A DNA stretch of 64,000 bases from Alphaproteobacteria bacterium (GCA_009783145.1 WRHR01000002.1:34834-98833); one strand, 5' to 3'. Counted from the first letter of the stretch, positions 112-63,395 are shown. Numbers and translations are program-made. The notes: a model not told the origin generated them from the letters alone.

Positions 112-235
112 AATTAGCAATTAGCAATTAGCAATTAGCAATTAGCAGTTTGACGCAACAATAAGCATTGTCCATTATAATGGACAATGTTTCTAAATTC
201 TCCGAACCATTAATTGCTAATTGATAATTGCTAAT
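112..235. repeat. Heptamer-array hairpin element, family A: (gcaatta)x4 - spacer with TGTCCATTATAATGGACA - (taattgc)x3
   Basis: Tandem 7-mers 112-143 and inverted copies 209-235 flank perfect 18-bp palindrome 169-186. Confidence 0.85.
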
Positions 236-1015
236 TTATGGGCATTGGGACAGCAAATCCTGCACCATACGGACGTCGTCCGTTATCGAGACCGTAACTT
301 CGCGCTTCAGCCCGTCCTGAAAGGTATAAATGAACTGTGCGTCGGAAAAATCATCAAACGGCGCCAGCAGAGCGTCGAACCATTCGCGACGGTGGCACAG
401 GCAGACGTCCCGCACATCGGATACCGCATTCGCCGTCATAGTGCGCCGGTATTTCGCCTGAAGCTCGGCATCTCCGGTCACCAAGCAGCGATCGTTGAAT
501 CCGTAGAAGTTCGCGTCATCCACCATGAACTTGTATATGAGGCCGCGGGATGCCCCGGCATTTCGCAGTCTGTTCACCATTCCGCTTGTGCAGCAGGCGC
601 GCGACGCCCTCATCAGCGTTCTGTATCTTTTCACCAGCGGGCGCATATATTCCGCGTCCATATCTATTTCTTCCCCGGAATCTATCGCTCTTTGCAACGC
701 GGCCGTCCTTTCTTCCCCGATCGAGCGCGAGGGCAATTGCAACCCTTCCCTGACAAGCGGCTTGCGCGTCCAGATCCGGCACTCGGCATTCGTGAAAAAA
801 GGGCATCCCCTCTTTGAATACGGCGAAGAATAATTCAGCACGTTAAACGGTTTTCCGGCTTCGAATAAAAAGTCAAGCTCGTCAAATAAAACGGGGTCTC
901 CCTGAAAAACGATATCATCGGATATAAAGAAATCCGCGCTGCCGTCATCGGACGCAAACGCGCCGAACGAGCAAAGCGCAAACAGCAACGCGCAAATAGC
1001 AAATCTTGCTTTCAT
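236..1015 (-). CDS. Hypothetical secreted protein (cleavable signal peptide MKARFAICALLFALCSFGAFA)
   Basis: 259-aa ORF, N-terminal signal peptide; no recognisable domain. Confidence 0.5.
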   Translation of the reverse strand: MKARFAICALLFALCSFGAFASDDGSADFFISDDIVFQGDPVLFDELDFLFEAGKPFNVLNYSSPYSKRGCPFFTNAECRIWTRKPLVREGLQLPSRSIGEERTAALQRAIDSGEEIDMDAEYMRPLVKRYRTLMRASRACCTSGMVNRLRNAGASRGLIYKFMVDDANFYGFNDRCLVTGDAELQAKYRRTMTANAVSDVRDVCLCHRREWFDALLAPFDDFSDAQFIYTFQDGLKREVTVSITDDVRMVQDLLSQCP

Positions 1016-1035
1016 AATAAAGAATTATATCATAA

Positions 1036-1128
1036 ATAATGACTAATGACCAATGACTAATTACAAATGACCAATCCGCACCAAATTAGTCATTAATCAT
1101 TGGTCATTGGTCATTAAAAAAACCGCCT
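1036..1128. repeat. Heptamer-array hairpin element, family B: (aatgacN)x5 / inverted (attNgtc)x4
   Basis: taatgactaatgaccaatgactaat ... attagtcattaatcattggtcattggtcatt. Confidence 0.8.
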
Positions 1129-1147
1129 TTCGGCGGTTTTTTTTAGA
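1118..1147 (-). terminator. Intrinsic terminator (aaaccgcc-tttc-ggcggttt + T/A runs), bidirectional
   Basis: GC hairpin followed by U-tract on minus strand immediately after the stop of 1143-1817. Confidence 0.6.
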
Positions 1148-1894: not shown

Positions 1895-2596
1895 TTACCT
1901 TGCTGGAGACAGCCTGATTTCCACGCGCCGGTTCATACGGCGACCCGTATCGTCCTGGGCCGCGATCGGGCGCGCGGCGCCACGCCCGGTTATGAACATC
2001 CGCGACGTGTTGACCTCGTGCTTTGCCAGGAAAATCGCCACCCTTTGGGCCATGTCTGTCGACAGCGCAACCGCCGCGTCCTTGTCCCGCATAGCGTCCG
2101 TATATCCCGCGATTTCCATAAACGTGGCATCGTATTTTTTCAGAACCTTCGCGATGGTCTTCAACATATCCGCCCCGTCTGCGGAGATTTCCGGAGCATC
2201 CGAATACATAAACGAATCGCGCACAAGCAGCAAGACTACATCTGTCCCGACGCGCTGCACTTGGATTCCAGGCTTCAGCAAGGAATCATAAAGCTCTTGT
2301 TCCAACGCCACCATGTATTTGAATACCGCCGGGTCTATATCCGTACGGGCCGATTCCGCACCATAATTGCTGATTACTGATTGCTCATTGCCAATTAACT
2401 TGCCCCCATTGCCCAAGTAAACCGGGCGCTTTGCAATTTTCATAGTATCCGTCATTTCTCCCATGGTCGCCCCGCGAAGAATCGCGGGCCACTGGTCATG
2501 CGGCGGAGTTTTATATGCGACGCAGCCGCATATAAGAGTAAGAGAGTAGAAGAGTAGAAGAGTAGAAAAGAATGATAATAACCGATGTTTTTTCAT
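1895..2596 (-). CDS. OmpA-family peptidoglycan-binding (lipo)protein
   Basis: C-terminal OmpA_C/MotB-like domain (...TDAMRDKDAAVALSTDMAQRVAIFLAKHEV...NRRVEIRL); signal peptide encoded by the repeat at 2525-2640. Confidence 0.7.
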   Translation of the reverse strand: MKKHRLLSFFSTLLLFYSLTLICGCVAYKTPPHDQWPAILRGATMGEMTDTMKIAKRPVYLGNGGKLIGNEQSVISNYGAESARTDIDPAVFKYMVALEQELYDSLLKPGIQVQRVGTDVVLLLVRDSFMYSDAPEISADGADMLKTIAKVLKKYDATFMEIAGYTDAMRDKDAAVALSTDMAQRVAIFLAKHEVNTSRMFITGRGAARPIAAQDDTGRRMNRRVEIRLSPAR

Positions 2597-2640
2597 ATCT
2601 GATTCTCTCCTACTCTCTTACTCTTTTACTCTCATTTAAC
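2525..2640. repeat. Heptamer/octamer-array hairpin element, family C: (agagtaga)x4 / inverted (tactctc)
   Basis: gagtaagagagtagaagagtagaagagtagaaaag ... ctctcctactctcttactcttttactctc; left arm codes LLSFFSTLLLFYSLTL of the 1895-2596 product. Confidence 0.8.
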
Positions 2641-3456
2641 CCAAACCGCCACTTCGTTTTTATCCGCTTTGCGGCAGTAAGTCGCGGCGGATTCAAAGTA
2701 CCCGTTAACGCTGACGCGATCCGCCCAATCCAGCTTTACCGTCGCCAGCCAGCCGCAAGTCTTGAAATCCAGCCCATTCAGCACCAGCGCGAATTCGCGC
2801 ACTCCCGGATGGGCGAATACCGAGAAATCCGCACCCGCCAGCGGGCTTTTTTCTGTTTTCATCACACCAGATTTTACAAGATAGTCGGTGGAGATTCCCC
2901 CAAAATCACGCCGCGCGGCATACAGCAGTTTCGTATTGCTGGCAATCGCTTTCAAGTCTTCGACCGCAACCATGCGAATCTGGCGAGTGCGCACGACATT
3001 ATACATTGATATCGCGCCCGCAGTCATAACACCTGCGATTGCAAGAACGCCCAGCATCTCTATTAGCGAACGACCTGATTGCGACAGGTTGGAGGTTGGA
3101 GGTTGGAGGTTGGAGGTTATTGATTTTGTAGAACTTGAAAGCATCTTTTTTATCTCCTCACAGTCATTGTTGATATTGTTAAACCATTCTTCTGTCAGGT
3201 AATCATTATCTTTTAGCAATTCCAGCCAATACAAAGTTTCGGAACATTCTTTTAATGCTATGTATTGCTTATTTGCAAAATCTTTTCTGCTGCTGGCATA
3301 AGCAGCTTCTGCCAAATTAGCACCGATACTTGTCCCCGATCGTAAAATTTGTTTAGAAAGAATATATTCTTTTTTTTCATCACACAAAAATTTATATAAC
3401 TTTACAACTCGACTGGCAAACTTTTTACTCTTTGTAAAAATCATACTTTCTTTCAT
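2632..3456 (-). CDS. Chimeric ORF: N-terminal four-helix-bundle protein of the 23S-rRNA-IVS protein family (TIGR02436-like) + (TSNLQPP)x3 repeat linker + type IV pilin-like C-terminal half (GRSLIEMLGVLAIAGVMTAGAISMY prepilin motif)
   Basis: Residues 1-110 match the four-helix-bundle pattern (SIGANLAEA...FIALKECSETLYWLELL); AT-rich block 3125-3456; class-III signal motif internal to ORF. Confidence 0.5.
   Translation of the reverse strand: MKESMIFTKSKKFASRVVKLYKFLCDEKKEYILSKQILRSGTSIGANLAEAAYASSRKDFANKQYIALKECSETLYWLELLKDNDYLTEEWFNNINNDCEEIKKMLSSSTKSITSNLQPPTSNLSQSGRSLIEMLGVLAIAGVMTAGAISMYNVVRTRQIRMVAVEDLKAIASNTKLLYAARRDFGGISTDYLVKSGVMKTEKSPLAGADFSVFAHPGVREFALVLNGLDFKTCGWLATVKLDWADRVSVNGYFESAATYCRKADKNEVAVWVK
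3087..3118. repeat. (ggttgga)x4 tandem heptamer repeat, in-frame inside CDS 2632-3456
   Basis: ggttggaggttggaggttggaggttggagg encodes TSNLQPPTSNLQPP. Confidence 0.8.
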
Positions 3457-3460
3457 TTTT

Positions 3461-3492
3461 ACCTCCTACTTCCTACCTCTTACCTCCTACTT
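3461..3492. repeat. Family D (ggaagta/ggaggta) single arm between chimeric-gene start and dnaX stop
   Basis: acctcctacttcctacctcttacctcctactt. Confidence 0.6.
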
Positions 3493-6329: not shown

Positions 6330-9212
6330 TTACGGACATGACCCACCGGGTGTTTCCATTTCCAACTGAAAACATTTCGGCACACCATTCAGCTTGCCAG
6401 CCCGAGTTATATAGCTACATCTAAGTCCAGCCGCGACGCATCCTTGCGGACCTTCCAGGTATCCCGTGCAGCTTTCATCCATAAATACCCAAACATAGTC
6501 TTCTGAACTATACGTTGAATGGTGCTCGCCATCACCATCTGCATAAGTGAAGCCATATCCTATAAAACCACAGGCAGGATTTATTGCCGCCCCTATTGTA
6601 AAAAGCCCTGAATCGCATCCGAAGCCTTTTGCCGGACATTGCGAATTACGTTCAACACAAGCCGAATTCTGGCTGGAACCTTGTGGTACTCCGCATATAC
6701 TGCCCAGCCATGTCGTTTCGATTGAACAGCAATGGTTATTGTCTGAATTTGCAGAACAAGTGCAATTCTCAATAAGTTGGCCAATTTCGCATGGCGGATA
6801 AACGCAGGAATTGCCGTTCGACTCTTGCCCTGTCGGACAGCAATACTGATTAATACCGGAAGTGCTTACGTCGCCGGGGCAAGCGCAAGACCCATCCATA
6901 GGGAAGTTTGCCGTCGAGCACTTGGGCTTACAGCCGTCGTCCCATGCTTGCCCGGACGGACAGCAATGTCCATGACTGGCGTTGCTGCAAGAGCACTCGT
7001 CCGTAGCGGGTCCCGGGATCGGGCACGGAGGCTTGCCCGTAACGCAATTCATCCCGTTCCAAATCTGTCCGACACCGCAATCCGGCTGACAACGGTTGAG
7101 GTTAATGTTCCAAACTTCGCCCGGCTCGCAGACGCCGTACGGCAATTCGCAGCGTCCCGAGATTACCAGATACCCGGCTTCGCAGACGCAGCGCTCATTC
7201 ACATAGAATCTCTGCAGACCCGTGTTTGGATCCGTTTGATATATTTGCCCAGGCCTTGGAATCGGCGCACCGACCTGCAACGACACCCAAGATGAATAAT
7301 CCGGACACAGCATCGACTGATAGAAGATATCCGATATGCTTTCTATGCATGTGTTCGGCTCGTCTATCGGACAAGCAACTTGATCGTCCGAGAACACCGC
7401 ATAGCCGCAAGTCAGCGCAACGTTCCGACACGCTCCTTTCAGCACCGCGTACACATTGTTGATATTCGCGTTATTAGACCAAGAATTAATCTGCATAACC
7501 TGCTGCGAATAGCACGCCGAAATTTCCGCCATACAACTGGAAGCGTAATCCGATATGATCCTTTCCTGAGCGGCGCGGATGCTGACCATCGCCCGCTGGA
7601 TATAATTCACCAATATATTATTCTTGTTGTTATACTTGCCGCGGTCGTCGTAAGTAAATGCGCGGCACTTGTCCAAGACCGGGCGGCAAAGGCCGCTGTT
7701 CGCATTGTCCCCCATTCCTATCTTCGAAAGCAGATACCGCACGATGCACTTGCCGTTATTGTTTTGAGCGTCGCAGGCGGAATAGCCGGACATGCTCCAC
7801 GCGCTGTTGATAAAGTTCGCATCTATCAGCGAATTATCATAATTAACCATCATCTTTCTTATCATAGAAATATTCTGGCCCAGTATGACTTCGCCATTTT
7901 CGTCTATGAATCTTTTTGTCGGATCCAAGCATTTCGCCATGTCGGCGCCGCAAACCATGTCGTCCTTCATGCATTGCTCCAAGGCCCCGACGCAGCCCTT
8001 GGCGTCGTACGCATTGTGGTCCTGCAGCACGGCCAGACGCGCCTTTTGCAGCATCTGCGTTGCGCTGCGCACGTTGGATTTAAGGGTATCGTTCATCTTT
8101 TCCAATCCCTTTTCGTACGCGATGCAGTCCTTGTCTATCTCCACGTCATAGCGGCCCGTAACCTGCCCGGTGTTCGCGCCCTTGGCCTTGCATGCGTTTA
8201 TCACGGGCGCGCAGCGCTTTTGCGCCATTTTGAACAAGTCCGTCCCGCGAAGGTTCGCAAACGAGGTATTGTTGTTCAGGCTGAACATTTCCGTAAAGTC
8301 CGTATCCAAATCGAAGTCCAAATCCAAATCCAGTCCGAAGTTGTTGTTGCCTTCCGCCACAAAAGATTCTGGGGTGCGTATCAGCTTTTCGATATCCGAC
8401 AGCATTCTGCGCGATTGGGTTGTGTCGCGGGCGTTCTGCAGTTCCAGCTCCGCTTCGGTGGCGGACATAATCGCGCGGATTTCCGGAGCCGTCAGCCCGA
8501 CATAGCGGATGCGCTGCGCCACGTCGTTCAACTGGCTGTTCGCTTCCTTTACGGCGCTTTCCACTCGCGCGTAAGACGACAAGCGCCCCGAACAGGCGCA
8601 TCGCTTTTGATTCGCGTCGATTACCGCGCAGAACTGATCCATGCAATCCGTGTACTGCACCATGCACGAATCGGTCGCAGCGCTGGTTTCTTCCCAGTTA
8701 AGCGCAGGCGCAGCAGGCGCAGAGGTCGCCGCGCGCGCCGTCAGATTACGGTTTTCGGCGCTTATATTCGAACCGGTTTGAAGGTCCGTGCCGACAATTT
8801 TCGCCCGTCCTCCGACTTCCGCCGTAGTCGGGCGCAAGGTAACCCCCGCGCGCCGCATAGGCGCGGACGCGTTCAGGCTTGCGGCATCGGTGCGCGCGGC
8901 GCGCCCTACTTGACGCGCGGCTTCGGTTATCGGGCTGGCGCGTCCGGATGCGGCCGGGGCCGCGTTCGCAACTTGACGAGATACGACTGCGCCGCGAGGA
9001 GACGGTGTCGCAGCTTGGACGCCAACTGCCGCCGGCTGATTCGCCGTTACGCGCGATACAACAGCGCCTTGGGTTTCAGTCTGATTTTGCGCGGACGAAG
9101 CGGCTGTAACGCCAACCTGCTGGCCTGGAATCGCGCGCGACGGGGCAACGTCAGCGGCCAGCGCCATGCCAGCGCAAAGAGCAAAGAACAAAGAGCAAAG
9201 AGCAAGTCTTTT
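6330..9212 (-). CDS. Large secreted Cys-rich protein B (signal peptide, A/T/G/R-rich disordered region, conserved Cys core, C-terminal Cys-dense repeats)
   Basis: about 960 aa from MKRLALCSLFFALCAGMALA; paralogous to 9215-11356 (YTDCMDQFCAV...RCACSGRL vs YYTCMDEICTA...RCACAGRV). Confidence 0.6.
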   Translation of the reverse strand, partial: KRLALCSLFFALCAGMALAADVAPSRAIPGQQVGVTAASSAQNQTETQGAVVSRVTANQPAAVGVQAATPSPRGAVVSRQVANAAPAASGRASPITEAARQVGRAARTDAASLNASAPMRRAGVTLRPTTAEVGGRAKIVGTDLQTGSNISAENRNLTARAATSAPAAPALNWEETSAATDSCMVQYTDCMDQFCAVIDANQKRCACSGRLSSYARVESAVKEANSQLNDVAQRIRYVGLTAPEIRAIMSATEAELELQNARDTTQSRRMLSDIEKLIRTPESFVAEGNNNFGLDLDLDFDLDTDFTEMFSLNNNTSFANLRGTDLFKMAQKRCAPVINACKAKGANTGQVTGRYDVEIDKDCIAYEKGLEKMNDTLKSNVRSATQMLQKARLAVLQDHNAYDAKGCVGALEQCMKDDMVCGADMAKCLDPTKRFIDENGEVILGQNISMIRKMMVNYDNSLIDANFINSAWSMSGYSACDAQNNNGKCIVRYLLSKIGMGDNANSGLCRPVLDKCRAFTYDDRGKYNNKNNILVNYIQRAMVSIRAAQERIISDYASSCMAEISACYSQQVMQINSWSNNANINNVYAVLKGACRNVALTCGYAVFSDDQVACPIDEPNTCIESISDIFYQSMLCPDYSSWVSLQVGAPIPRPGQIYQTDPNTGLQRFYVNERCVCEAGYLVISGRCELPYGVCEPGEVWNINLNRCQPDCGVGQIWNGMNCVTGKPPCPIPGPATDECSCSNASHGHCCPSGQAWDDGCKPKCSTANFPMDGSCACPGDVSTSGINQYCCPTGQESNGNSCVYPPCEIGQLIENCTCSANSDNNHCCSIETTWLGSICGVPQGSSQNSACVERNSQCPAKGFGCDSGLFTIGAAINPACGFIGYGFTYADGDGEHHSTYSSEDYVWVFMDESCTGYLEGPQGCVAAGLRCSYITRAGKLNGVPKCFQLEMETPGGSCP

Positions 9213-11356: not shown

Positions 11357-11421
11357 AAAAAACCCCTTCCCTATATTCGTTTTATTATATCATAAAAACT
11401 AACTGAGTGAAAGCGTTATCA

Positions 11422-11508
11422 ATGACTAATGACCAATGACTAATGTTTAATGACCAATATAAGCGCCCATTAGTCATTCGTCATTTATCATTGGTCATTA
11501 GTCATTAA
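11422..11508. repeat. Heptamer-array hairpin element, family B (second copy)
   Basis: caatgactaatgaccaatgactaatg ... cattagtcattcgtcatttatcattggtcattagtcatt. Confidence 0.8.
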
Positions 11509-11965: not shown

Positions 11966-12024
11966 TCTCCTTTCTGCTGTTGCTGAAGCACTCTAGCATT
12001 AATCGCTAAAAATGAAAAGCTGTT

Positions 12025-12237
12025 TTATCTGCCAAAGCCGAGTTCTTTTAACTCTTTCTTATATTTTTGAAAGTTCGGGCATTTTGACTGGTCGCAGCCG
12101 GCGCTCCAGAACCCGCAAGTTTCGCAGGGATTCCGGGGGCGCTGTAAATGGGCTGAGCCCGGCGGGGGGCCAAATTCCGACATTCTCGTTTCTTTTGTTA
12201 GAAGCATCAAAGACTGTAATAAAAAATTTCGCGACAT
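12025..12237 (-). CDS. Possible small Cys-rich zinc-binding protein (CETCGFWSAGCDQSKCPNF)
   Basis: 70-aa ORF, CxxC...C...C spacing; weak. Confidence 0.2.
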   Translation of the reverse strand: MSRNFLLQSLMLLTKETRMSEFGPPPGSAHLQRPRNPCETCGFWSAGCDQSKCPNFQKYKKELKELGFGR

Positions 12238-12716: not shown

Positions 12717-12747
12717 AAATTCCGCCGGATGGCGGGATTTTTATTCT

Positions 12748-16155: not shown

Positions 16156-19027
<2,872 letters not shown>

Positions 19028-19062
19028 TTTATCCAATGCTTGAAGAGTAGGTCGTAACGCGA

Positions 19063-19170
19063 GACGCGAGACACGAAACGCGAAAAAACCAACTGCTTCA
19101 AATTTGGTAAAATAACTTGAATGAGCTATAATCGCACGCGTCACGCATCTCGCGTTTCGCGTCTCGATTT
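19063..19170. repeat. Heptamer-array hairpin in the tRNA-23S spacer: (cgcgaga)x2(cacgaaa)(cgcgaaa) / inverted (tctcgcg)(tttcgcg)(tctcg)
   Basis: cgcgagacgcgagacacgaaacgcgaaaa ... cgtcacgcatctcgcgtttcgcgtctcg. Confidence 0.7.
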
Positions 19171-19889: not shown

Positions 19890-21585
<1,696 letters not shown>

Positions 21586-25611: not shown

Positions 25612-25613
25612 TA

Positions 25614-25738
25614 ATTAGCGATTAGCAATTATCAATTAGCGATTAAAAATGCAACAATATGAAATGTCCAATATACTGGACAATGTTATTACCAGTTCCC
25701 CAATTGCTAATCGCTAATTGCTAATCGCTAATTCCTTT
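25614..25738. repeat. Heptamer-array hairpin element, family A (second copy) with central TGTCCAATATACTGGACA
   Basis: ttagcgattagcaattatcaattagcgatt ... ttgctaatcgctaattgctaatcgctaatt; shared gcaacaata flank. Confidence 0.85.
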
Positions 25739-30403: not shown

Positions 30404-30525
30404 AAGTAGGAAGTAGGAGGTAGGAAGTAGGAAATAAAAAGCAACAATAAACGATGTCCATTATAATGGACAACGATTACCTTACTCTATCACTTCCTAC
30501 TTCCTACCTCCTACTTCCTACTTCT
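30404..30525. repeat. Heptamer-array hairpin element, family D: (ggaagta)xn - TGTCCATTATAATGGACA - (tacttcc)xn
   Basis: taagtaggaagtaggaggtaggaagtaggaaat...cttcctacttcctacctcctacttcctacttc; palindrome at 30455-30472. Confidence 0.85.
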
Positions 30526-36976: not shown

Positions 36977-37082
36977 AGCATGAAAGAGTACAAAATTTTC
37001 ATATAAAAGGTCAATTAATAAAAGTACCGCGCAACCTAGATTACGCGGCCCTAATTTATTCTTTATTCTCTATTCTTTATTC
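36937..37082. repeat. Heptamer-array hairpin element, family E: (aagaata)x3 - spacer - (tattctt)x3; left arm codes the dacA signal peptide, right arm abuts the pyk stop
   Basis: gaaagaataaagaataaagaataaagaat ... ttattctttattctctattctttattcttta. Confidence 0.8.
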
Positions 37083-37083
37083 T

Positions 37084-38839: not shown

Positions 38840-38935
38840 GCGCGCTTCGCGCGCAGAGTAGAAGAGTAGGAGATTATTAGATACTCTCTAACTCTTTTAC
38901 TCTGCGCGCGAAGCGAGCGTTACTCTCTTACTCTT
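38840..38935. repeat. Heptamer/octamer-array hairpin element, family C (copy 2) with GC hairpins gcgcgcgcttcgcgcgc
   Basis: cagagtagaagagtaggag ... tactctctaactcttttactctgcgcgcgaagcgagcgttactctcttactctt. Confidence 0.8.
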
Positions 38936-52231: not shown

Positions 52232-53311
52232 TTACGATTGCTTCAGGATTTCTTCAGCGATGTTAGCAACGGCATTGTTTTCAATCTTCGCCTTTGCCGC
52301 CATCTTTTTCAGGCGCGCCCCATTGCTAAACAATTCCTCCAGCGTTGCGGATAGCCACCTTGAAGTAAATTTGCTCTGCGGGATTGCAATGCCGCCGCCT
52401 TGCGAAGCAAAAACTTCCGCATTCGCCGCCTGGTCGGGGTTTATCCCCAACGGGACCAGAATCGCCGGACGGCCAACGGTCTGCAATTCCGCGACCGTGC
52501 TTGCGCCGCTGCGCCCTATCACCAAGTCCGCCGCCGCCACTTCCGATGCCATATCATGAATGAACGACAGCACGTTCGCCTTCACGCTGTTGCCGGCATA
52601 GAACCTTTGCAAGCGCGCGACGTTTTCCGGCCGGGTCTGATGCACTATGAACAGCTTCTTTACGATGGATGACGGAAGAAGGATGATGGACGACGGAACC
52701 ACGTCGTCCAAAATCTGCGCCCCTAACGAACCACCGGTGACAAGAAGACGGATGATGGATGATGGATGATGGATGATGGATGACATAAATTCTTTACGAA
52801 CAGGTAATCCTGTATAAACAACTTTCAACTTTCCATCATCCGTCATCCGTCTTCCATCATCCATTCCCTCCACCTTTGGAAAACTTGTCATCAAAGTATT
52901 TACCCAGCGCAGGGCGAATTTATTCGCGCGACCAATTGCCGCGTTCTGCTCGTGCAATAATGTCGGGATTTTCCAAACGCGCGCCGCCAAAATTGCAGGA
53001 ACGGACGCATAGCCGCCGAATGCCACAACTCTGTCCGGTCGGAAAACCATAAAGCGCAGCGTCAGAGCAACCGCCGAAAAGCCGATCTTCATCAATGCGA
53101 AGACTTGCTGCAACTTTCCCTTGGCGCCGACGCCGGACGCCCAAACCCAAGCGATTCCCGCGCGCGGAGGCTTATTCTTTTTCACCATATCCATAACGCG
53201 CGAATCGGTCGAGATTATCACGCGATTATGGCGCCGCACCAATTCTTCGGCAACGACCAGCGCTGGAAAAACATGCCCGCCGGTTCCCCCGGTCGCAATC
53301 CATATCTTCAT
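52232..53311 (-). CDS. murG: UDP-GlcNAc:undecaprenyl-PP-MurNAc-pentapeptide GlcNAc transferase
   Basis: GGTGGHVFPAL N-terminus, C-domain LLVTGGSLGA; linker holds an inverted (ggatgat) array element. Confidence 0.85.
   Translation of the reverse strand: MKIWIATGGTGGHVFPALVVAEELVRRHNRVIISTDSRVMDMVKKNKPPRAGIAWVWASGVGAKGKLQQVFALMKIGFSAVALTLRFMVFRPDRVVAFGGYASVPAILAARVWKIPTLLHEQNAAIGRANKFALRWVNTLMTSFPKVEGMDDGRRMTDDGKLKVVYTGLPVRKEFMSSIIHHPSSIIRLLVTGGSLGAQILDDVVPSSIILLPSSIVKKLFIVHQTRPENVARLQRFYAGNSVKANVLSFIHDMASEVAAADLVIGRSGASTVAELQTVGRPAILVPLGINPDQAANAEVFASQGGGIAIPQSKFTSRWLSATLEELFSNGARLKKMAAKAKIENNAVANIAEEILKQS
52748..52867. repeat. Inverted heptamer arrays (ggatgat)x5 ... (atcatcc)x4 inside the murG inter-domain linker, in-frame
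   Basis: gacggatgatggatgatggatgatggatgatggatgacat ... ccatcatccgtcatccgtcttccatcatccattcc; codes MSSIIHHPSSII and GMDDGRRMTDDG around the conserved GLPVR block. Confidence 0.85.
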
Positions 53312-53329: not shown

Positions 53330-53462
53330 TATAAAGTAGGAGGTAGGAAGTAGGAAGTTGGTGATTAAGAATTTATATCTCGAAATAAAAGCTCTTACTC
53401 TCTTATTTCCTACCTCCTACCTCCTACCTCCTACTTCCTACTTCCTACTTTCTACTTCCACT
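53330..53462. repeat. Heptamer-array hairpin element, family D between ftsW and murG (right arm overlaps the ftsW 3' end)
   Basis: agtaggaggtaggaagtaggaagttggtgattaagaatttat ... ttcctacctcctacctcctacctcctacttcctacttcctactttctacttcc. Confidence 0.8.
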
Positions 53463-54597
53463 TGTCCTCTCGCACCAATGCCAATATCATACCAAACATC
53501 AGGCAGAATGCAACAAAAGACGAGCCGCCGTAAGATATGAACGGCAAAGTCATTCCCTTTGGCGGAAACAGCCCCAGCGCCGACATCACGTTTATGCAAA
53601 CTTGAGTGCCGAACAAGGCGAACAATCCGCCGCATGCATAAAAAACAAACTTGTCCTTGGCTCGCGTCGCGTCTGTAGCCAGGCGTTTCATCACGTATAA
53701 AAATCCCAGCAAAAGGACGCAGGCTATTATGGCGCCGGAATCTTCCGCTATCGCGGAAAAAACAAAGTCCGTATGCGCGTCGGGCAGCGATTGCTTTATA
53801 AAGCTGTCTTCGCCGCGGCCGAATAATCCGCCGTGCTTTACCGCCTCTACCGATTTTTTAATCTGATAGTTATCGCCGCCGCCGGCAAGACCCAAGAACC
53901 CCAGCACCCTCATTCGTACGTGCGACATGGTGAAGAATGCGAACACTCCACCCGACGCACCGACGCCCGCAAAAATCGGAAGAAAATACATCGGCAAGCC
54001 CGCCAGAAAAATCATAGAAGCGAACACGATTAAATAAAGAACGAACGAGCCGAAATCCGGATGAGTCAATATAATCAAAATCGCGGGCAGAAATAATGCC
54101 AGATATGCCGGCCAGCCGTCCCATTTCCATGCTCGCTTTGCAAAGAATATATCGCCCGGCGCCAGCTTTTCAATGCGCGTCAAGAACCATGCGGTTAAAA
54201 TTATGAAGCCCGGTTTCAACAAGTCGCTGGGCATAACGGACGCAAAGCCCAGATTGACCCAGCGCGCGGATCCTTTGACCGCTGCGGGCATGACCAAGGT
54301 CGCAATCAGCAGCAGCCCGCATATGACCACGTTCACGAACGCGACGGCGAAAACTTGCCTTTTGCTTAAGAATGACGACACAAGCAGCGTTATCAGCCCC
54401 AGTATGTAAAAGGGTATCGCTTTCAGCAGAAAGAAATGCCACGGCTGGGGCGGATTCATACGCTCGGCCGCCACAGAGCCGGCGGACACCATCGCCCACA
54501 TGCCGACGAATATAAGCGCGATAACGCACCAGAACAGACGGCGGTCTATTTCAAAATACCAGCTTGTTAATTTGCTCTCTTCGCTTCGGCGCAGCAT
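53452..54597 (-). CDS. ftsW: Cell division/peptidoglycan polymerase FtsW (SEDS family)
   Basis: 10 TM SEDS topology, 381 aa, dcw-cluster context. Confidence 0.85.
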   Translation of the reverse strand: MLRRSEESKLTSWYFEIDRRLFWCVIALIFVGMWAMVSAGSVAAERMNPPQPWHFFLLKAIPFYILGLITLLVSSFLSKRQVFAVAFVNVVICGLLLIATLVMPAAVKGSARWVNLGFASVMPSDLLKPGFIILTAWFLTRIEKLAPGDIFFAKRAWKWDGWPAYLALFLPAILIILTHPDFGSFVLYLIVFASMIFLAGLPMYFLPIFAGVGASGGVFAFFTMSHVRMRVLGFLGLAGGGDNYQIKKSVEAVKHGGLFGRGEDSFIKQSLPDAHTDFVFSAIAEDSGAIIACVLLLGFLYVMKRLATDATRAKDKFVFYACGGLFALFGTQVCINVMSALGLFPPKGMTLPFISYGGSSFVAFCLMFGMILALVREDKWK

Positions 54598-55674: not shown

Positions 55675-55750
55675 CCTTTTTTTATTTACGATTTAAGATT
55701 TGCGATTTTACTCCCGACAAATCGTAAATCGCAAATCGTAAATTATTTTT
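55675..55750. repeat. Heptamer-array hairpin element, family F: (tttacga) / (atcgtaa) arms around GGGAG-like core
   Basis: ttatttacgatttaagatttgcgattttactcccgacaaatcgtaaatcgcaaatcgtaaatt. Confidence 0.8.
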
Positions 55751-56486: not shown

Positions 56487-57793
56487 TTCTTCTTTCCCTC
56501 CGCAAAGATTTTTCGCCAGTCGGAAACTTGCTTTTTCGTATTATCCCAAATCTTTTTCAGGTCGCCGCTGACTTGCTTGCCGAACGACTCGTCTATCTTT
56601 CCGCCCATGTCTTCCGCAATCTTGGTCGCTTTATCCGCCAGATATGCGACCAGGCAGCCGACTATCAGGACCGGCATAAAGCCTTCGGATTGCACTGTCG
56701 GAACCTTGTCTCCCAAATCAGTTGTAACCACTCCGCCCAGCAATGCCGCGCCTATGGCCGCAACGACCGCGAGTATAATGAAGTAAATCACCGCCTGGAT
56801 GAACCTTTTTATCTGGTCGGGCAGCGAGGTATATTTGAAAATTCCCGCAAAGGCCGTAAATATGGTGGCCGGGATGCCTTCCAAGTTTGTGGCCTTCTTG
56901 CCGCCGAAGCATTCCGTAATAGCGGTAAACGGAAGCAGCATTATCGCCATGAACAAGTCCACTATCACGCCCAGCGCCAGCAAGGCGAACTTCCAGATAT
57001 TTATCGTGAAAATCACGACAAAGACAGCGCCCGCGACGAAAGTCAGCGCGCTGTGGCCGATCCCAAACCACATCCACTTGAAGCCCGCCGCGACGCAGGT
57101 ATAAAAGAATCCCGATAGACGCGTCGGCAGGCATAATAAATCCGCCGTGTAACGCGATGATACTATCCCGCCGCTATTACCCACAAACTGGCGGATCGCA
57201 TCGCAAGTATCGGGCAGCTTTGTCCCCGCCGCGCCCGCGACGGAATCCAGTATCAGGTTCGACATATACGCGCCGGCGCTTATTATTGGCCCGAAGATCG
57301 TCATAAAAATCTGGCCCGGATTGTTGGACAGCACCCACAGCCAGACGGAAATCAACAGCGCTTTCTTTGCGACCTCTACGCCCAACTTTTTAACATCACC
57401 CTGGCCTTTTATGAGATTATAAGCCTCGAACATTATCCAGAACGCGAACAGGGCCACCAGCAGGGTTTGCACGAACTCGAACAGAGAACGCTGCAGAGCG
57501 TCGCTGATGCGGGACAGGGCGCCGATAAAGGCCTTTCCCACGCGCGCTTCTATAGGAACGTAATCTTTTACCAGCGCTTTCTGAAAATTGCCCTGGAACG
57601 AATCTATGTCCAGCGACAGATTGCTCATAAGAAGTTTCTGTTTTTGTTCGTCGAGCCAAGAGCCGGTATTCCCACCAGCGACGATTTCGCCGGCTATGGC
57701 TTCATTATTAATCACAGGAGACAGAACATCATCGGCAAAGGCATTGCCGATGCAAAGAATAAAGAATAAAGAATAAAGAATAAATTTTTTCAT
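56483..57793 (-). CDS. VirB6/TrbL-like type IV secretion inner-membrane protein, paralog D
   Basis: Signal peptide MKKFILYSLFFILCIGNAFA (repeat-encoded), multi-TM core, hydrophilic C-tail; start taken at MKKFIL. Confidence 0.55.
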   Translation of the reverse strand: MKKFILYSLFFILCIGNAFADDVLSPVINNEAIAGEIVAGGNTGSWLDEQKQKLLMSNLSLDIDSFQGNFQKALVKDYVPIEARVGKAFIGALSRISDALQRSLFEFVQTLLVALFAFWIMFEAYNLIKGQGDVKKLGVEVAKKALLISVWLWVLSNNPGQIFMTIFGPIISAGAYMSNLILDSVAGAAGTKLPDTCDAIRQFVGNSGGIVSSRYTADLLCLPTRLSGFFYTCVAAGFKWMWFGIGHSALTFVAGAVFVVIFTINIWKFALLALGVIVDLFMAIMLLPFTAITECFGGKKATNLEGIPATIFTAFAGIFKYTSLPDQIKRFIQAVIYFIILAVVAAIGAALLGGVVTTDLGDKVPTVQSEGFMPVLIVGCLVAYLADKATKIAEDMGGKIDESFGKQVSGDLKKIWDNTKKQVSDWRKIFAEGKKK

Positions 57794-57797
57794 TCTA

Positions 57798-59261: not shown

Positions 59262-59340
59262 GATTTACGATTTACGATTTACGATTTACGATTTAGGGAG
59301 TCAAATCGTAATTCGCAAATCGTAAATTATTTTTTCTCCT
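59262..59340. repeat. Family F heptamer-array hairpin filling the gap between virB6 paralogs C and B
   Basis: atgatttacgatttacgatttacgatttagggagtcaaatcgtaattcgcaaatcgtaaatt. Confidence 0.85.
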
Positions 59341-60586
59341 CTGTTCCCGATTTTGCTTCTTTCTTGTCTCCGTCTTCGGCTTTTTTCTCCGGCTCTTTTC
59401 CCGTTGCCGCGTTCCACAGGATTGTTCCCGTTTTCTTCGCGAAATCAAAAGTATTCTGTCCGATTTTTAATGCGTCTTCGCCCAGCTTGTCGCCAATGGG
59501 GTGCCTTTCTTCTATATTGAACGTTTTATGTATCTCTTTCGCCACATCCCCGATATGGTCGGCCAGGTATTGCACGACATAGATCAGGACTATGACCCCG
59601 CCCAGCGTTACCATCGCCAGATTGTCGCCCTCCAGATCGCCCGCGAAAACGCTGCCATCCATTATGCCTTTGGCGAGAGCGGCGCTGTCCGCTCCGGGGC
59701 TGGAAAAGAACTTCGCGACAATCGTCATTATCACGACATAGGTTATCACGACCGTTGCCAAGGACACTATGGAGTTTATCACATTTCGGAAGTATCCTTT
59801 TTCGCCGACTATGGCGGTCCCGATGCTTTTCACCCACTTGGCGGACTCGCCGAATTGGGCGTTTTGTATTACGAAAAAGACCAGCATTATCGGAAAGAAG
59901 AACGCGAAGAATGTAAGGTCTATGATCACGTCCACAAAGTAAAAGCAGAATTTTATGAACAGCCTGAAAAACGACCAGACAATAAAAAGCCCCATAAAGA
60001 ACAGCATTATATGCTTTATAAGATTGCTGACCGGCCAAAGGGCTTTCCAAGTGAGCGAATGGTCCACAATCACCATTCCCATCTTCATCATCGCCTGGAA
60101 CTGAGTAATGCTGGTCTTCATCAAAAGGACTATGCGGTCGCGGAGCTCGGGCCGGTAAAACCCGTTGTCCGGCATCTGTTCGGTTCTGTATACTACTTTT
60201 TCCGAGACCTTTCCTTCTTCGGTATTCAGCATGGAATGAGTATATACCAGGGTCATATCGGCAACGGGCTCGAAAGTTATAGTAGTGATAAACCGCGGCA
60301 CCATAACGCCCAGCCCAAGGATGGCGATAACGACAAGCGAGTTTATCATAACCGGTTTGAAATATTTCTGATACGTCGGGTCAATATCGTCGGATTTCAG
60401 ATTCTGCAGGACCGCATACAAGACGTAAAAGGCGACAAACACGGACAGCAATACGGCCGCCAGCAACGCCATCTTGTCATAAATCGCGGCAGCCGCGGCG
60501 CTGATTACCTGGAACAGGCGGTCGAATATTGGGCAGCTCCAGCACTGCACGGTTTTACCAACAAAAGTGTCTATTAATGTGTTCAT
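59327..60586 (-). CDS. VirB6/TrbL-like protein, paralog B
   Basis: 419 aa; CWSCPIFDRLF motif, polytopic, KE-rich C-tail. Confidence 0.55.
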   Translation of the reverse strand: MNTLIDTFVGKTVQCWSCPIFDRLFQVISAAAAAIYDKMALLAAVLLSVFVAFYVLYAVLQNLKSDDIDPTYQKYFKPVMINSLVVIAILGLGVMVPRFITTITFEPVADMTLVYTHSMLNTEEGKVSEKVVYRTEQMPDNGFYRPELRDRIVLLMKTSITQFQAMMKMGMVIVDHSLTWKALWPVSNLIKHIMLFFMGLFIVWSFFRLFIKFCFYFVDVIIDLTFFAFFFPIMLVFFVIQNAQFGESAKWVKSIGTAIVGEKGYFRNVINSIVSLATVVITYVVIMTIVAKFFSSPGADSAALAKGIMDGSVFAGDLEGDNLAMVTLGGVIVLIYVVQYLADHIGDVAKEIHKTFNIEERHPIGDKLGEDALKIGQNTFDFAKKTGTILWNAATGKEPEKKAEDGDKKEAKSGTEEKK

Positions 60587-60665
60587 TTACGATTTACGAT
60601 TTACGATTTACGATTTACGATTTAAGGAGTCAAATCGCAAATCGTAATTCGTAAATATTAAATTA
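60587..60665. repeat. Family F heptamer-array hairpin filling the gap between paralogs B and A
   Basis: (tttacga)x5-tttaaggagtcaa-(atcgcaa)(atcgtaa)... Confidence 0.85.
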
Positions 60666-61946
60666 TTTTCCTTTTACCCACCCCAGCGCTTTCCCCGCCT
60701 TCTTGCCCCATTCGTTCACGTTCTTGTATGCTGTTTTGGTGTCCGCTTTCGCGTTATCGTACAGCTTGGTCATACTCTTATCCTTATCGGCGCCCGTATA
60801 TTTCATCAGTTGCTCTTTCGTCTCGTCAAAGATTTTGAACATCAAAAAGAACGTAAGCAGCGCGGACAGCCAGACGATGGAATGCCCTCCGAATCCCATC
60901 GCCCCGTCCCCGTTCCCCGAGAATGCGGGACCGTTAAAGTTAAACAAGGCGCGCACCGCCGCGATATTGATCGCCAATATAAACACGCATGCAATCATAG
61001 TTATAACCAGCTTCTTCAAGCTGTCTATTATACCCCCGAATGCGGGCCACGGATCAATCCATTTATCCGAGTCTTTCGCAACAAACATCAGGACTTTGAA
61101 CGGGTACAGCATCAAGGCCATTCCGAACTCGAAGATGCCCTGGATTATCAACAATGCCATAAAGAAGTTGCTGGACACAAAAGCAAATACCAGGAAAATC
61201 CCCGTAATCAGATTCAATAAATCCCGCCCGCCGTTCGGGACAAGATTGGCCATTCCAGTCAAGCCGGATGTTATGAATGTCAGCCCGCGCTTTATTATCT
61301 GATTATTGACATGGGTTATATCGGCGACGGGTTGGACCAGGAATTGGCAACTTTCTTTTGAGATATACTCTTTTTTTATGATGTTTTCCGGGCATTCAAT
61401 CTGCCGCGCGCCGGCGAACTCATTATTTTTATTTATGATTTCGGAAATGCTGTGCGTATAAAGCGCGCCAAAGCGCAGGAAAGGATCGACCACGACTTGC
61501 GTGACATATTGGGGCTTTACCTGCAAAAGCAATCCGGCGGCGATGATTCCGCGCAAGGCGGGCTTTACCAGGTCCTCGGAAATTTTCAGCGCGGACGCTT
61601 TGCCTTCCCACATCTGTCCGCCTTTCATTCCGAAAAAGGACAGCCAGCTTGGCGGCAGATACATCTTGACCAGATACATTCCGATAAAAAAGCCCAGCCA
61701 TCCCCAAACGAACAAGTAAATAATCCCGTCGCCCTTGCCGACAAAGAACTCGTACCCCGCCATAGCGATGGACATGAACGAGTCCAAAACTATGGGAACA
61801 AACGGGGACAAGTCCAGGCCGTCCACCAGCCCCCAAGCGGCATGCGCCCCAAGGGGCGCAGAGCATAGAGCAAAGAGCAAAGAGCATAGATAAAAGAGTT
61901 TTCTCGAGAATTTCATCCAATCCTGATTATAGCATAAAAAGCCCAA
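60663..61946 (-). CDS. VirB6/TrbL-like protein, paralog A (true start probably MKFSRK about 61913)
   Basis: Signal peptide LFYLCSLLFALCSAPLGAHA, CQFLVQPVADI motif, polytopic. Confidence 0.55.
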   Translation of the reverse strand: MGFLCYNQDWMKFSRKLFYLCSLLFALCSAPLGAHAAWGLVDGLDLSPFVPIVLDSFMSIAMAGYEFFVGKGDGIIYLFVWGWLGFFIGMYLVKMYLPPSWLSFFGMKGGQMWEGKASALKISEDLVKPALRGIIAAGLLLQVKPQYVTQVVVDPFLRFGALYTHSISEIINKNNEFAGARQIECPENIIKKEYISKESCQFLVQPVADITHVNNQIIKRGLTFITSGLTGMANLVPNGGRDLLNLITGIFLVFAFVSSNFFMALLIIQGIFEFGMALMLYPFKVLMFVAKDSDKWIDPWPAFGGIIDSLKKLVITMIACVFILAINIAAVRALFNFNGPAFSGNGDGAMGFGGHSIVWLSALLTFFLMFKIFDETKEQLMKYTGADKDKSMTKLYDNAKADTKTAYKNVNEWGKKAGKALGWVKGK

Positions 61947-61973
61947 TCAAATTATGATATAATTGATAAAAAC

Positions 61974-63368
61974 ATGACCCGCTGGCGCAAATTTTGGATA
62001 ATTTTTCTTTCTTTCCTCCCCTTCGGCGCGGGGGCGGTTGCTCCGTTGGTAATCGGGCTGATTGCCGGCGGGATTTCAATCGCAGGTTTTTCAATTTACC
62101 GGTCTATGTCGCCCGTTAATATGCAGGACGCGCTCTCGTTCTTTTCCAGTTGCTGGTCATGCGGCATATTCAACGACATAATGCTGGCCATGTCCGATAT
62201 TTTGCCGAAAATCTATTCCGCAATCGGCGAGTTCTGCGTGCCTATGGCATTCGCGCTTACGGCCGTTTACTTCGGCTGGGAAATCTTAAAGGGCTATATC
62301 GGCGTGGGAAAGCAGCCCGATGCATGGAGCATTTCGGGCCAATTCGGCACGCACTTGGTAAAACTGGCACTCGTCGTCGCGCTTTTTCTGTTCCCTTTGC
62401 CGCGCTTCATAACGAACGTCGCGATAGAGCCCATATTCAACGTCGGCCTATCCCTTGGGCATGCGGTTGACGGCAAGTTCGCCAAGGGTACCGCCAGCGA
62501 GCATTCGTTCGAGTCCTGCCTGGTCGCGACCGCAGTGATGGACCCGTCCAGCGCAGAGCTCGCAGCAAAAGGGGGCCTGTCCCCCGAAGCCTTGGCGAAG
62601 GGGGGCGCTTTTTCACCAAAGCTGCGCCATAACATGACATGCCAACTGGGCCAGGTCCATCAGATGACGGGGCTGGGCCTGACCGCAGGCTGGACCATTA
62701 TGAACATGGCGTTCAACGGCGAATATATGCACAAGCTGATCATCCCGATATTCCCGAACGTGGCGATGTTCTTGGCGGGAATGCTGGTTACGGTATTGTT
62801 TTTCTTTGCGCTGATTCCCGTGCCGCTTTACTTTCTGCTGACTTTCATAAGACTGTCGATGAACCTGGTGATGCTTCCGCTGATGCTGTTGGGGTGGCTT
62901 TTCGAAGGATGGCAAATATTTCCCCAAGGCAACAAGCCCAAAATTATCATCGACCAGGTGGTTCAGGATTCTCTGGGCATCGCGATGGTCGGGATATTTA
63001 CGGCCTTTTCGGTATTGTTCCTGAATGCGGCGTTCGGCAAATGGGGGGGCGCGAGCGTATTGCAGACCGCATTGGAGACAAACGATTCGCATTATCTTAT
63101 AGACGGCCTGATGATGAATAACGGAAGCCTGATCACGATACTGATGCTGGGAATATTCCTGGCTATGTTTATGAACTCCATACCGGCGCTGACCCAAGCA
63201 TTGTTCGGCGAGGTCAAAATCCCGGAAGATTACTATAAGAAAGCCCGCGACGACCTGAAAAAAATCAGCGGAAATGTGACTGACTGGTGGAAAAAAGTCA
63301 GCAAGGCAAATAAAGGTGAAAGTGCAGGTGCAAGTGAAAGTGGAAATGCAAACAAAACAACTAACTAA
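61974..63368 (+). CDS. VirB6/TrbL-like protein, paralog E (opposite strand to A-D)
   Basis: 464 aa; CWSCGIFNDIM motif; C-tail GESAGASESG coded by a hairpin arm. Confidence 0.55.
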   Translation: MTRWRKFWIIFLSFLPFGAGAVAPLVIGLIAGGISIAGFSIYRSMSPVNMQDALSFFSSCWSCGIFNDIMLAMSDILPKIYSAIGEFCVPMAFALTAVYFGWEILKGYIGVGKQPDAWSISGQFGTHLVKLALVVALFLFPLPRFITNVAIEPIFNVGLSLGHAVDGKFAKGTASEHSFESCLVATAVMDPSSAELAAKGGLSPEALAKGGAFSPKLRHNMTCQLGQVHQMTGLGLTAGWTIMNMAFNGEYMHKLIIPIFPNVAMFLAGMLVTVLFFFALIPVPLYFLLTFIRLSMNLVMLPLMLLGWLFEGWQIFPQGNKPKIIIDQVVQDSLGIAMVGIFTAFSVLFLNAAFGKWGGASVLQTALETNDSHYLIDGLMMNNGSLITILMLGIFLAMFMNSIPALTQALFGEVKIPEDYYKKARDDLKKISGNVTDWWKKVSKANKGESAGASESGNANKTTN

Positions 63369-63395
63369 CCCTTTCACCTGCACTTGCACCTGCAC
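63314..63395. repeat. Hairpin (gtgcaggtgcaagtg / cacttgcacctgcac) spanning the stop codon of virB6 paralog E
   Basis: 15-bp perfect stem, one arm coding, the other just 3' of the stop. Confidence 0.55.

Follow-up and report, generated by a model that had tools for sequence, protein, structure and literature searches.

Heptamer arrays and hairpins in the window

We analysed a 64,000-nt stretch of an alphaproteobacterial metagenome-assembled genome (MAG; GCA_009783145.1, WRHR01000002.1:34834-98833), referred to here at its full length as the window, in which the genes lie nearly all on the minus strand and are interspersed with hairpins whose arms are inverted arrays of tandem 7-nt units. One of these elements encloses a gene of the PF05635/TIGR02436 family, and relatives of this gene in many other genomes are likewise accompanied by heptamer arrays. 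Tandem Repeats Finder reports about 45 arrays of period 7 or 8 in the window. A strict scan retains 32 arrays of period 7, against a mean of 0.3 per dinucleotide shuffle, and each other period from 4 to 6 and from 8 to 12 yields between 0 and 3 arrays apiece. Most arrays have a reverse-complement partner array 20-130 nt away, and the pairs form about 19 hairpins with 24-51 paired positions (92-100% Watson-Crick) and stems of about 25-35 bp, the remaining arrays being solo, without an inverted partner. Folding energies range from -23 to -80 kcal/mol, and the eight hairpins checked against shuffles gave z scores of -5.5 to -15.5, with 0 of 200 shuffles equally stable. At least 12 heptamer unit families occur together in the window, at a density of approximately one element per 2.6 kb, which is unusually high, in an alphaproteobacterium.

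The inverted-array layout proposed in an initial annotation of this sequence is real, and every locus listed there was recovered at or near the same place; AGAGCAA/GCAAAGA (loci 969, 9174, and 61860) is an additional family. Contigs from ERZ27257320, ERZ27257305, and SRR6220664 match the window over 21, 15.5, and 1.8 kb, respectively, with zero gaps; the first is the window's own MAG assembly, and the 15.5-kb and 1.8-kb matches are contigs from two other samples. Period-7 arrays are also found in related genomes, so that the arrays are neither confined to the window nor assembly artefacts, the two findings that the initial annotation had named as fatal to its proposal. A CRISPR array consists of repeats of 23-50 nt with unique spacers of comparable length between them and is usually accompanied by cas genes. 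This identity is ruled out, as had been supposed at the outset, by the contiguous 7-nt units, the lack of spacers, and the absence of cas genes in the window. Rfam covariance models at gathering score detected rRNA and tRNA only, with no model for the hairpins.

The elements of the window are as follows.

112..236, unstranded: hairpin, arms AATTAGC x5.1 and TAATTGC x3.7, loop type 1 (GCAACAATA..ATTGTCCATTATAATGGACAAT); between the stop of a 259-aa gene (236) and the start of the next gene (87)
969..1003, minus strand: solo array GAGCAAA (sense TTGCTCT-type), coding the signal-peptide core ..ALLFALCS.. of the 259-aa protein
1037..1116, unstranded: hairpin, arms TAATGAC x5.6 and ATTAGTC x4.6; a terminator-like GC stem plus T-run lies 3' of it at about 1119-1143
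2534..2633, unstranded: hairpin with 8-nt units, AAGAGTAG and CTCTCTTA; one arm codes the signal peptide of an OmpA-lipoprotein, the loop contains the start codon (2596), and the 5' untranslated region (UTR) contains the other arm
3086..3490, minus strand: element bearing an open reading frame (ORF), with the PF05635/TIGR02436 gene (about 3120-3456) between the arms
9174..9205, minus strand: solo array GCAAAGA x4.6, coding ..LALCSLFFALCA.. in the signal peptide of a 986-aa protein
11421..11507, unstranded: hairpin, arms AATGACT x5.4 and CATTAGT x5.7, same family as 1037-1116
18366..18505, minus strand: 23S helix-25 insertion, hairpin ATAAGTT (18394-18418) and TTATAAC (18444-18472), z -7.0
19057..19166, unstranded: hairpin, arms ACGCGAG and CGCGTCT, z -5.5; in the spacer directly upstream of the 23S 5' end (19031)
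21340..21512, minus strand: 16S helix-6 (V1) insertion of 168 nt, AGAGTAAG-type arms (array 21367-21401), nested hairpins, z -9.6
25613..25732, unstranded: hairpin, arms AATTAGC/GATTAGC, loop type 1; from the VirD4 stop to the RluB start
30404..30524, unstranded: hairpin with a perfect 30-bp stem, arms AAGTAGG and ACTTCCT, z -15.5; its type 1 loop is a homologue of those of family A, and the first unit is made by the LspA stop AAG-TAG
31023..31051, minus strand: solo array AAAGAAT x4.1, coding the LspA N-terminus MKKSILYSLFFIL
33380..33511, minus strand: hairpin in rsmA, arms coding KSEEWRVKS and HQLHSSLSTLHS in variable segments, loop coding the NLPY region, z -9.3
36934..37086, unstranded: hairpin, arms AAAGAAT x5 and TTTATTC x4.6; the DacC signal peptide (MKRFFILYSLFFIL) is coded by one arm, the 5' UTR and start codon are in the loop, and the other arm abuts the pyk stop
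38840..38935, unstranded: hairpin, GC clamp plus AGAGTAGA arms, in the divergent pyk/RNHCP intergenic region
47945..47978, minus strand: solo array TTCTTTA x4.9 inside acrB, aa ~489-500, KNKEKRIKNKEKK loop
49467..49582, unstranded: hairpin, arms AGGTAGG and ACTTCCT, loop type 2; from the stop of a membrane fusion protein (MFP) gene to the AcrB start
52750..52864, minus strand: hairpin in murG, arms coding MDDGRRMTDDGK and SSIIHHPSSII, loop coding LKVVYTGLPVRKEF, z -8.1
53334..53463, unstranded: hairpin, GGAAGTA-type arms of up to 8.3 units, loop type 2, z -7.0; from the ftsW stop to the murG start, the first unit being the native FtsW end TGG-AAG-TAG, with AAACCGGAGGTTTTTTT-ATG after the hairpin
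55684..55743, unstranded: hairpin, arms ATTTACG and AAATCGT, short loop (GGGAGT core), at the mraY-GT25 junction
57754..57784, minus strand: solo array AAAGAAT x4.4, coding MKKFILYSLFFIL (signal peptide)
59262..59335, unstranded: hairpin, arms GATTTAC x4.9 and complement, occupying the gap of two co-directional genes, z -8.5
60585..60656, unstranded: hairpin, arms ATTTACG x5.7 and CAAATCG
61860..61898, minus strand: solo array AGAGCAA x5.6, coding ..LCSLLFALCS..
63316..63395, unstranded: hairpin with 6/12-nt periodic arms (GTGAAA/GTGCAA) rather than 7, at the end of a 464-aa gene; the layout is otherwise alike

Most hairpins lie at gene junctions and occupy the gaps of co-directional genes (ftsW/murG, mraY/GT25, lspA/yidC, acrA-like/acrB, virD4/rluB, and others), and the first heptamer unit is often formed by the stop codon of the upstream gene. 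Some entries of the initial annotation change. The arrays at 31021, 47943, and 57755, previously placed among the hairpins of its family E, are solo arrays inside coding sequences (CDS), and the insertion in 16S V1 is not at 38840-38935, where there is an intergenic hairpin, but at about 21340-21512; the two were probably confused because both contain the module CGCGCGCTTCGCGCGCAGAGTA. A sigma-70 promoter was considered as an identity for loop type 1 and set aside: one copy has TTGACG and TATAAT separated by 20 nt, and the other two lack the -35 element.

The 23S insertion (about 140-200 nt) lies at model position ~583, at the apex of helix 25, which is the classical site of rRNA intervening sequences (IVSs), and that of 16S lies at model position ~80 in helix 6. 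Both fold to long stems with terminal complementarity, and neither contains an ORF. In site and structure these two insertions are IVSs, and by analogy with Coxiella they are expected to be excised by RNase III. The 23S gene (16139-19031) is also without model positions ~273-315, and a second small expansion in 16S lies near model position 188 (21 nt versus 3).

The PF05635/TIGR02436 gene and its heptamer-armed cassette

The gene enclosed by the 3086..3490 element matches PF05635 at 4.7e-31 and TIGR02436 at 4.9e-34 and encodes a 113-aa four-helix bundle of the family named 23S rRNA IVS protein. Its arms are a GGAGGTA-type array on the 5' side in the sense orientation (3460-3490) and (AACCTCC)x4.7 on the 3' side (3086-3118), so that what had been listed as separate loci at 3461-3492 and 3087 are two arms of one gene-enclosing element, squeezed in between the stop of dnaX (3487) and a gene for a prepilin-like protein. 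The sense 5' arm supplies a GGAGGT 5 nt before the ATG of the gene. The closest structure, and the sole match in the PDB, is 2RLD, with five chains. The PDB search gave no sequence link to Avd, a protein of diversity-generating retroelements (DGRs); the likeness to Avd comes from PMC10053308 and from a precomputed PF22296 (bAvd) match on record for the homologue at locus L092.

With no stop codon in the (AACCTCC)n arm, the PF05635 ORF continues through it into the prepilin-like protein (..QSG followed by RSLIEMLGVLAIAGV..; window 2632-3456, minus strand), which has no obvious start codon of its own. Either the fusion is genuine, its parts possibly being separated by prepilin peptidase, or the cassette has overwritten the 5' end of the pilin gene.

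The search for a co-occurring protein family that the initial annotation had recommended leads to PF05635/TIGR02436. We examined 80 loci with relatives of the window protein, one genome per species, from at least 10 phyla and including a complete chromosome; these are the best matches to the window protein, and their generality holds for that subfamily rather than for all of PF05635. Within 150 nt of the gene, the density of period-7 arrays is 4.63/kb versus 0.13/kb in the flanks, an approximately 35-fold difference, and other periods reach at most 0.04/kb. At least one array is present in 65/80 loci and at least two in 40/80, with 15/80 lacking a detectable array; complementarity between upstream and downstream sequence is well above shuffles in 56/80. 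Where clear arrays flank the gene on both sides, they are inverted in 30 of 36 loci and direct in one. The unit itself is variable, with 48 of 51 units being distinct, so the same architecture does recur with many units, as first proposed. Across 57 loci the cassette has a median stem of 33 bp (interquartile range 27-37) and a median loop of approximately 404 nt. Distant arrays share the unit of the arms in 42% of cases within a genome versus 9.7% between genomes, and among five related alphaproteobacterial loci the array density is 0.5-0.83/kb with the gene and 0.05-0.14/kb without the gene at the locus.

Firmicutes, Bacteroidota, and other phyla have homologues at 65-77% identity, many of them with 7-aa periodic tails (e.g., NSTLHSPNSTL). 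In L092 and L036 the gene lies between mraY and ftsW. Cassettes with heptamer arms are also present on IMG/VR viral contigs (L093-L099). The closest homologues (76% aa identity) are from a spore-forming Firmicute (L089, 8055-10369), in which two copies lie wedged around miaB, mutS, and mutL, and both findings suggest horizontal transfer. A copy in Nostochopsis (L080, 6001-6324) has TAACTGA/CTGATAA-type heptamers on its flanks, oriented directly and not as an inverted pair; the TAACTGA unit has been studied in Beggiatoaceae, Cyanobacteria, and Bacteroidetes (MacGregor 2015). In the literature searched, nothing generalises the link of the PF05635 family to inverted heptamer arms, and only an observation in Coxiella connects an IVS protein with heptamers.

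Arms inside protein-coding genes

The two MurG arms (MDDGRRMTDDGK and SSIIHHPSSII) fill the linkers that precede and follow LKVVYTGLPVRKEF; both linkers vary in length, and the YTGLPVR core of LKVVYTGLPVRKEF is invariant in 20 homologues. The upstream linker exceeds that of the array-free relative L004 by exactly 7 aa (21 nt), and in the downstream arm the native sequence is replaced with its length unchanged relative to L004. Other relatives have different heptamers in the upstream linker (GGAAGAC in L006, AAGGCAG in L007 and L008, TCGTCAG in L005, none in L004), and among the relatives compared a perfect inverted partner arm in MurG is found in the window only. The RsmA arms similarly sit on both sides of the NLPY catalytic motif, in variable segments. 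In both genes, therefore, ancient native sequence forms the loop, and an arm was written separately to either side. Reading frames had been explained initially by 3x7 = 21, which is part of the answer; the GGATGAT arm of murG also has diverged units that avoid an in-frame TGA. These variant units lie on the sense strand, and the stop-free ATCATCC arm is perfect, indicating that selection acted after the arm was formed.

Heptamer arrays also code hydrophobic cores in seven or more signal peptides or N-terminal helices (969-1003, 2534-2567, 9174-9205, 31023-31051, 36934-36968, 57754-57784, and 61860-61898), and so heptamer repeats are a source of secretion signals. An ILYSLFFIL core occurs three times, in LspA, DacC, and a 443-aa protein, and an LLFALCS-type core three times, in hypothetical exported proteins. 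Two hairpins, those of the OmpA-like lipoprotein and DacC, straddle the translation start, with one arm forming the signal peptide and the start codon in the loop; solo arrays code the cores of at least six further signal peptides.

Copying, concerted change, and comparison with relatives

Loci of the same family are paralogous over both arms and loop, with similarity ending at the outer arm ends; in the paralogous pair 49467-49582 and 53334-53463 the loop of one is inverted relative to the other. Arms can also change while the loop is retained. The A-family loci (AATTAGC) and a D-family locus (AAGTAGG) have a homologous loop; when their arms are aligned, the units match one for one, the same two substitutions recur in each unit, and the opposite arm carries the complementary changes. 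At FtsW-MurG, the hairpin of the window and that of L005 have the loop core and 3' flank (AAACCGGAGGTTTTT-ATG) in common, with arms of GGAAGTA and TAGTCAT, respectively. At this junction L007, L008, and L004 have tight or overlapping genes and no hairpin. Where the window has the ORF-less CGTAAAT hairpin at 60585..60656, TAGTCAT arms enclose a PF05635 gene at the orthologous junction of L005. Comparison of filled and empty sites at the FtsW-MurG and MraY-FtsW junctions gave no target-site duplications. The proposal that a common generating process, rather than simple copying, underlies the elements is favoured by the different heptamers at orthologous sites, by the MurG and RsmA arms around native motifs, and by the 48 units in 80 species; copying occurs as well, same-family loci being paralogues.

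If stems were selected at the RNA level, G-U pairs should be in excess on the sense strand. Imperfect stem positions are G-U versus A-C in 16 versus 20 cases in the window and 40 versus 50 in 57 other stems, and the mismatch spectrum is strand-symmetric. Given the lack of a G-U excess, the complementarity appears to result from copying at the DNA level, not from wobble-tolerant RNA selection. The arms have a marked polarity, the 5' arm being G-rich and C-poor and the 3' arm the reverse (48 versus 4 cassettes, p = 1e-10; 11 versus 0 window hairpins), a rule that holds on both strands because the structure is palindromic. A stop codon is a plausible seed of the unit at LspA, L005, and L036. Derivation of the unit from flanking native sequence was rejected as a general rule; it is clear at the FtsW end (GAAGTAG) and fails at L092.

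The window and strain L002, which comes from another sample, differ in the unit number of one array (3 versus 4 TGCTCTT units), with one unit fewer in L002 (600-760) at window 61860-61898; the other arrays are identical over 15.5 kb. Upstream of that array, the L002 sequence is wholly unrelated and has a perfect TTGACA-17-TATAAT promoter, and the array therefore coincides with a rearrangement breakpoint.

Discussion

Intervening sequences in rRNA have been known for 35 years, and PF05635 is a very large protein family. To our knowledge, neither these nor heptamer repeats have an accepted origin or function, and in the literature searched no paper treats the three together. Our results suggest that they are facets of one phenomenon, heptamer-array hairpins with or without a gene for a four-helix bundle in the loop.

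The claim in the initial annotation that no described repeat class has this property does not survive comparison with the literature, in which short tandemly repeated repetitive sequences (STRR; PMC2670836), the Xanthomonas arrays (PMC4692102), long simple sequence repeats (LSSR; PMC4679880), and the Coxiella IVS (PMC4990558) are all precedents. The cyanobacterial STRR are 7-bp repeats that form intergenic hairpins, e.g., at hupS-hupL, with a proposed role in transcript stability or translational coupling (PMC2670836), and among long simple repeats heptamers are the most frequent in many bacteria according to Mrazek 2007, as relayed in PMC4679880. The window elements resemble STRR and LSSR in having tandem 7-bp units, several families per genome, a mostly intergenic location, and hairpins in operons. 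Unlike STRR, they occur in an alphaproteobacterial host, are dominated by inverted pairs, and are found also in 16S, 23S, and essential CDS of the window; no statement of a link between STRR and PF05635 was found in the literature searched.

Xanthomonas genomes contain approximately 186 GGGAATC arrays, with 70-75 convergent pairs per genome that are capable of forming stem-loops (Rehm et al. 2015, PMC4692102). These arrays, like those of the window, are mostly of about four units and include convergent pairs, but they are built on one dominant G-rich unit that was read as a G-quadruplex, whereas the window has at least 12 units, most of which cannot form such a structure. One array in the supplementary table of that study (PMC4692102) overlaps the start codon of XCC0516, a PF05635 protein that has been crystallised; the study drew no connection to IVSs or PF05635. 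The Coxiella IVS is 428 nt long with a 28-bp stem, is excised by RNase III as has been shown, and bears an S23p ORF preceded by a strain-variable GACAGAT x2-3 (PMC4990558). The elements described here share with rRNA IVSs that bear an S23p ORF (Coxiella, Leptospira; helix 25 or 45) the site, the inverted-repeat stem, and a loop ORF from this family, and the cassette stem of 33 bp and loop of ~404 nt match the dimensions of the Coxiella IVS. They differ from these IVSs in that the rRNA copies of the window are ORF-less, the ORF-bearing copy and approximately 17 others lie outside rRNA, between or within protein genes, and the arms consist wholly of tandem heptamers. PF05635 proteins have been called uncharacterised (bioRxiv 2024.02.27.582315) and noted as wedged between cas genes (PMC3936711). 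A diversity-generating retroelement would have a reverse transcriptase and a template/variable repeat pair beside the Avd-like gene; the window does not encode a reverse transcriptase, and the neighbours of its PF05635 gene are dnaX and the prepilin-like gene.

Foldback (FB) transposons of Drosophila have inverted termini of short tandem repeats, Correia and repetitive extragenic palindromic (REP) elements are dispersed small palindromes whose RNA stems are processed by RNases, and the palindromic elements of Rickettsia insert in frame as whole units that code an extra peptide. The elements of the window are likewise dispersed and palindromic, as are FB elements, miniature transposable elements with inverted repeats (MITEs), REP, REP doublets forming hairpins (REPINs; PMC3116915), and Correia elements. 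Unlike these, they have no cognate transposase or REP-associated tyrosine transposase (RAYT) in the window and no target duplication at the junctions compared, their arms can flank native sequence, and arm sequence turns over while the loop stays. They share with the Rickettsia elements the tolerance of palindromes in essential protein and RNA genes of an alphaproteobacterium, differing in that each arm has a variable segment of its own and conserved coding sequence of ancient origin makes up the loop.

We lean, though not strongly, toward the view that the elements are genuine heritable stem-loop repeats of the heptanucleotide STRR and rRNA-IVS kind, with arms written at the DNA level and stems of the RNase III type. 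The hairpins of the window would mostly be ORF-less relatives of a widespread PF05635/TIGR02436 cassette with like arms. As the architecture already has precedents, what is new is the link to the gene across phyla and the density and diversity of the elements in an alphaproteobacterium. Replication slippage in 7-nt steps may expand a unit whose seed is often local sequence, e.g., a stop codon, and intrastrand template switching or gene conversion may then copy one arm into the other and spread arrays between loci. Slippage and switching of this kind would make both arms change in concert, leave few families per genome, and place different heptamers at orthologous sites. Selection would restrict arrays to tolerant sites such as linkers, surface loops, and signal-peptide cores. 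Once transcribed, the arms could form long, near-perfect double-stranded RNA, a potential RNase III substrate; between co-directional genes such stems may cut, stabilise, or insulate segments of polycistronic mRNA.

Several observations weigh against this account. A single difference in copy number between strains was seen. The clear paralogous copies of same-family loci over arms and loop would fit a mobile element equally well, and so would the presence or absence of the FtsW-MurG hairpin in relatives beside an ancestral-looking ATGA overlap. RNase III processing is argued from precedent, and the absence of G-U enrichment gives no sign of selection on the stems at the RNA level. The strong G-rich polarity of the 5' arm and the invariance of the period at 7 are not explained by the model, and the generality drawn from the 80 loci is that of the best matches to the window protein.

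The hairpins may instead be non-autonomous MITE or foldback elements that have heptamer terminal inverted repeats by chance and are mobilised in trans by a transposase or another factor from elsewhere, with the ORF-bearing PF05635 cassette as the autonomous or parental form; we consider this unlikely. It would account for the terminal inverted repeats and the dispersed paralogous copies that end at the outer arm ends, the flipped loop orientation, the precise stop-to-start placement with presence or absence at the FtsW-MurG and MraY-FtsW junctions, and the ORF-less hairpin of the window where L005 has the ORF-bearing form. A protein identity of 65-77% between Alphaproteobacteria and Firmicutes, together with the viral contigs, also implies horizontal spread. 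Mobility is harder to reconcile with the lack of target-site duplications at the junctions examined, the absence of a transposase or reverse transcriptase from the 64-kb window, and the homologous loops with different arms; the MurG and RsmA arms flank invariant native coding sequence and so did not arrive as a single unit, and the only gene of the cassette encodes a 113-aa helical bundle with no known catalytic activity.

It is also rather unlikely that the Avd-like, pentameric PF05635 protein and the heptamer arms form one previously unrecognised selfish system, of which STRR or other heptamer repeats and rRNA IVSs are ORF-less by-products. If this were true, it would provide a mechanistic origin for the bacterial heptamer excess and a function for a large orphan family, with a cassette that spreads across phyla and a protein that creates, maintains, or depends on 7-nt-periodic stems of arbitrary sequence.

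That the PF05635 protein is itself the cause, as an Avd-like homopentameric toroid with a 7-nt nucleic-acid register that promotes arm writing by slippage and strand-switching, first in cis and later throughout the genome, or needs the arms as a binding or packaging site, strikes us as distinctly doubtful. The ~35-fold enrichment beside the gene whatever the unit, the sharing of the unit by far arrays of the same genome, and the higher array density where the gene is present (five alphaproteobacterial loci) all point in this direction, as does the pentameric state (five chains in 2RLD; a homopentamer for the Xcc PF05635 protein, PMC4990558) set beside arms of about four to five units. PF05635 also resembles Avd, a reverse-transcriptase partner (PMC10053308), and there is the PF22296 match of the L092 homologue. 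However, the evidence is correlative, with n = 5 in the density comparison, and the enrichment is equally explained if the hairpin is needed to express or excise the gene. Heptamers persist in Coxiella, where the S23p protein is apparently not made (PMC4990558), 15/80 loci are without detectable arrays, and no biochemical activity is known for the PF05635 protein.

We judge it very unlikely that the arrays are cis-regulatory binding sites for a regulator of translation or transcription, as proposed by MacGregor 2015 for TAACTGA heptamers upstream of start codons, or that the hairpins are riboregulators that sequester the Shine-Dalgarno (SD) sequence, or terminators, selected locus by locus. 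Many arms do lie at start codons or SD regions, including the GGAGGT before the PF05635 gene and the loops that hold the DacC and OmpA starts, and 5' arms are purine-rich and SD-like. Units differ among loci and genomes, however, so that there is no common binding site; rRNA, CDS interiors, and 3' ends also contain arrays, G-U pairs are not tolerated preferentially among stem mismatches, and orthologous genes in the close relatives L004, L007, and L008 are altogether without such elements. Finally, collapsed or chimeric repeats are conceivable in a short-read metagenome assembly, but an assembly or sequencing artefact can be dismissed with near certainty, as three assemblies agree base-for-base without indels, the arrays keep the reading frame in essential genes, and the same architecture is present in 80 other genomes, including a complete chromosome.

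The generating mechanism can be tested on natural experiments in this material: a junction that has the element in one genome and lacks it in another, one loop with different arms, and arms around invariant catalytic motifs. The elements are also of practical consequence, as they are expected to fragment rRNA, rewrite signal peptides and linkers, and can mislead 16S taxonomy and gene calling, e.g., in the read-through from the PF05635 ORF into the pilin.

Other features of the window

Five conserved hypothetical genes (417-487 aa) lie upstream of mraY at 55755-63368 in the window and in the syntenic L004, L005, and L091. Several encode signal peptides, none has a Pfam or NCBIfam match, and they occupy the usual site of mur ligase genes; the mraY-ftsW interval is without murD. 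A 33/66-nt tandem repeat of about four copies (68-75% matches) at 11649-11799 is coding, within a 142-aa ORF (11537-11965), and unrelated to the heptamers. Beside the 5S gene, a low-GC island at 12000-15900 (0.37-0.43 versus ~0.50) encodes an RloB-like protein paired with an AAA_21 (AbiEii/OLD-like) ATPase and is probably a defence or mobile island.

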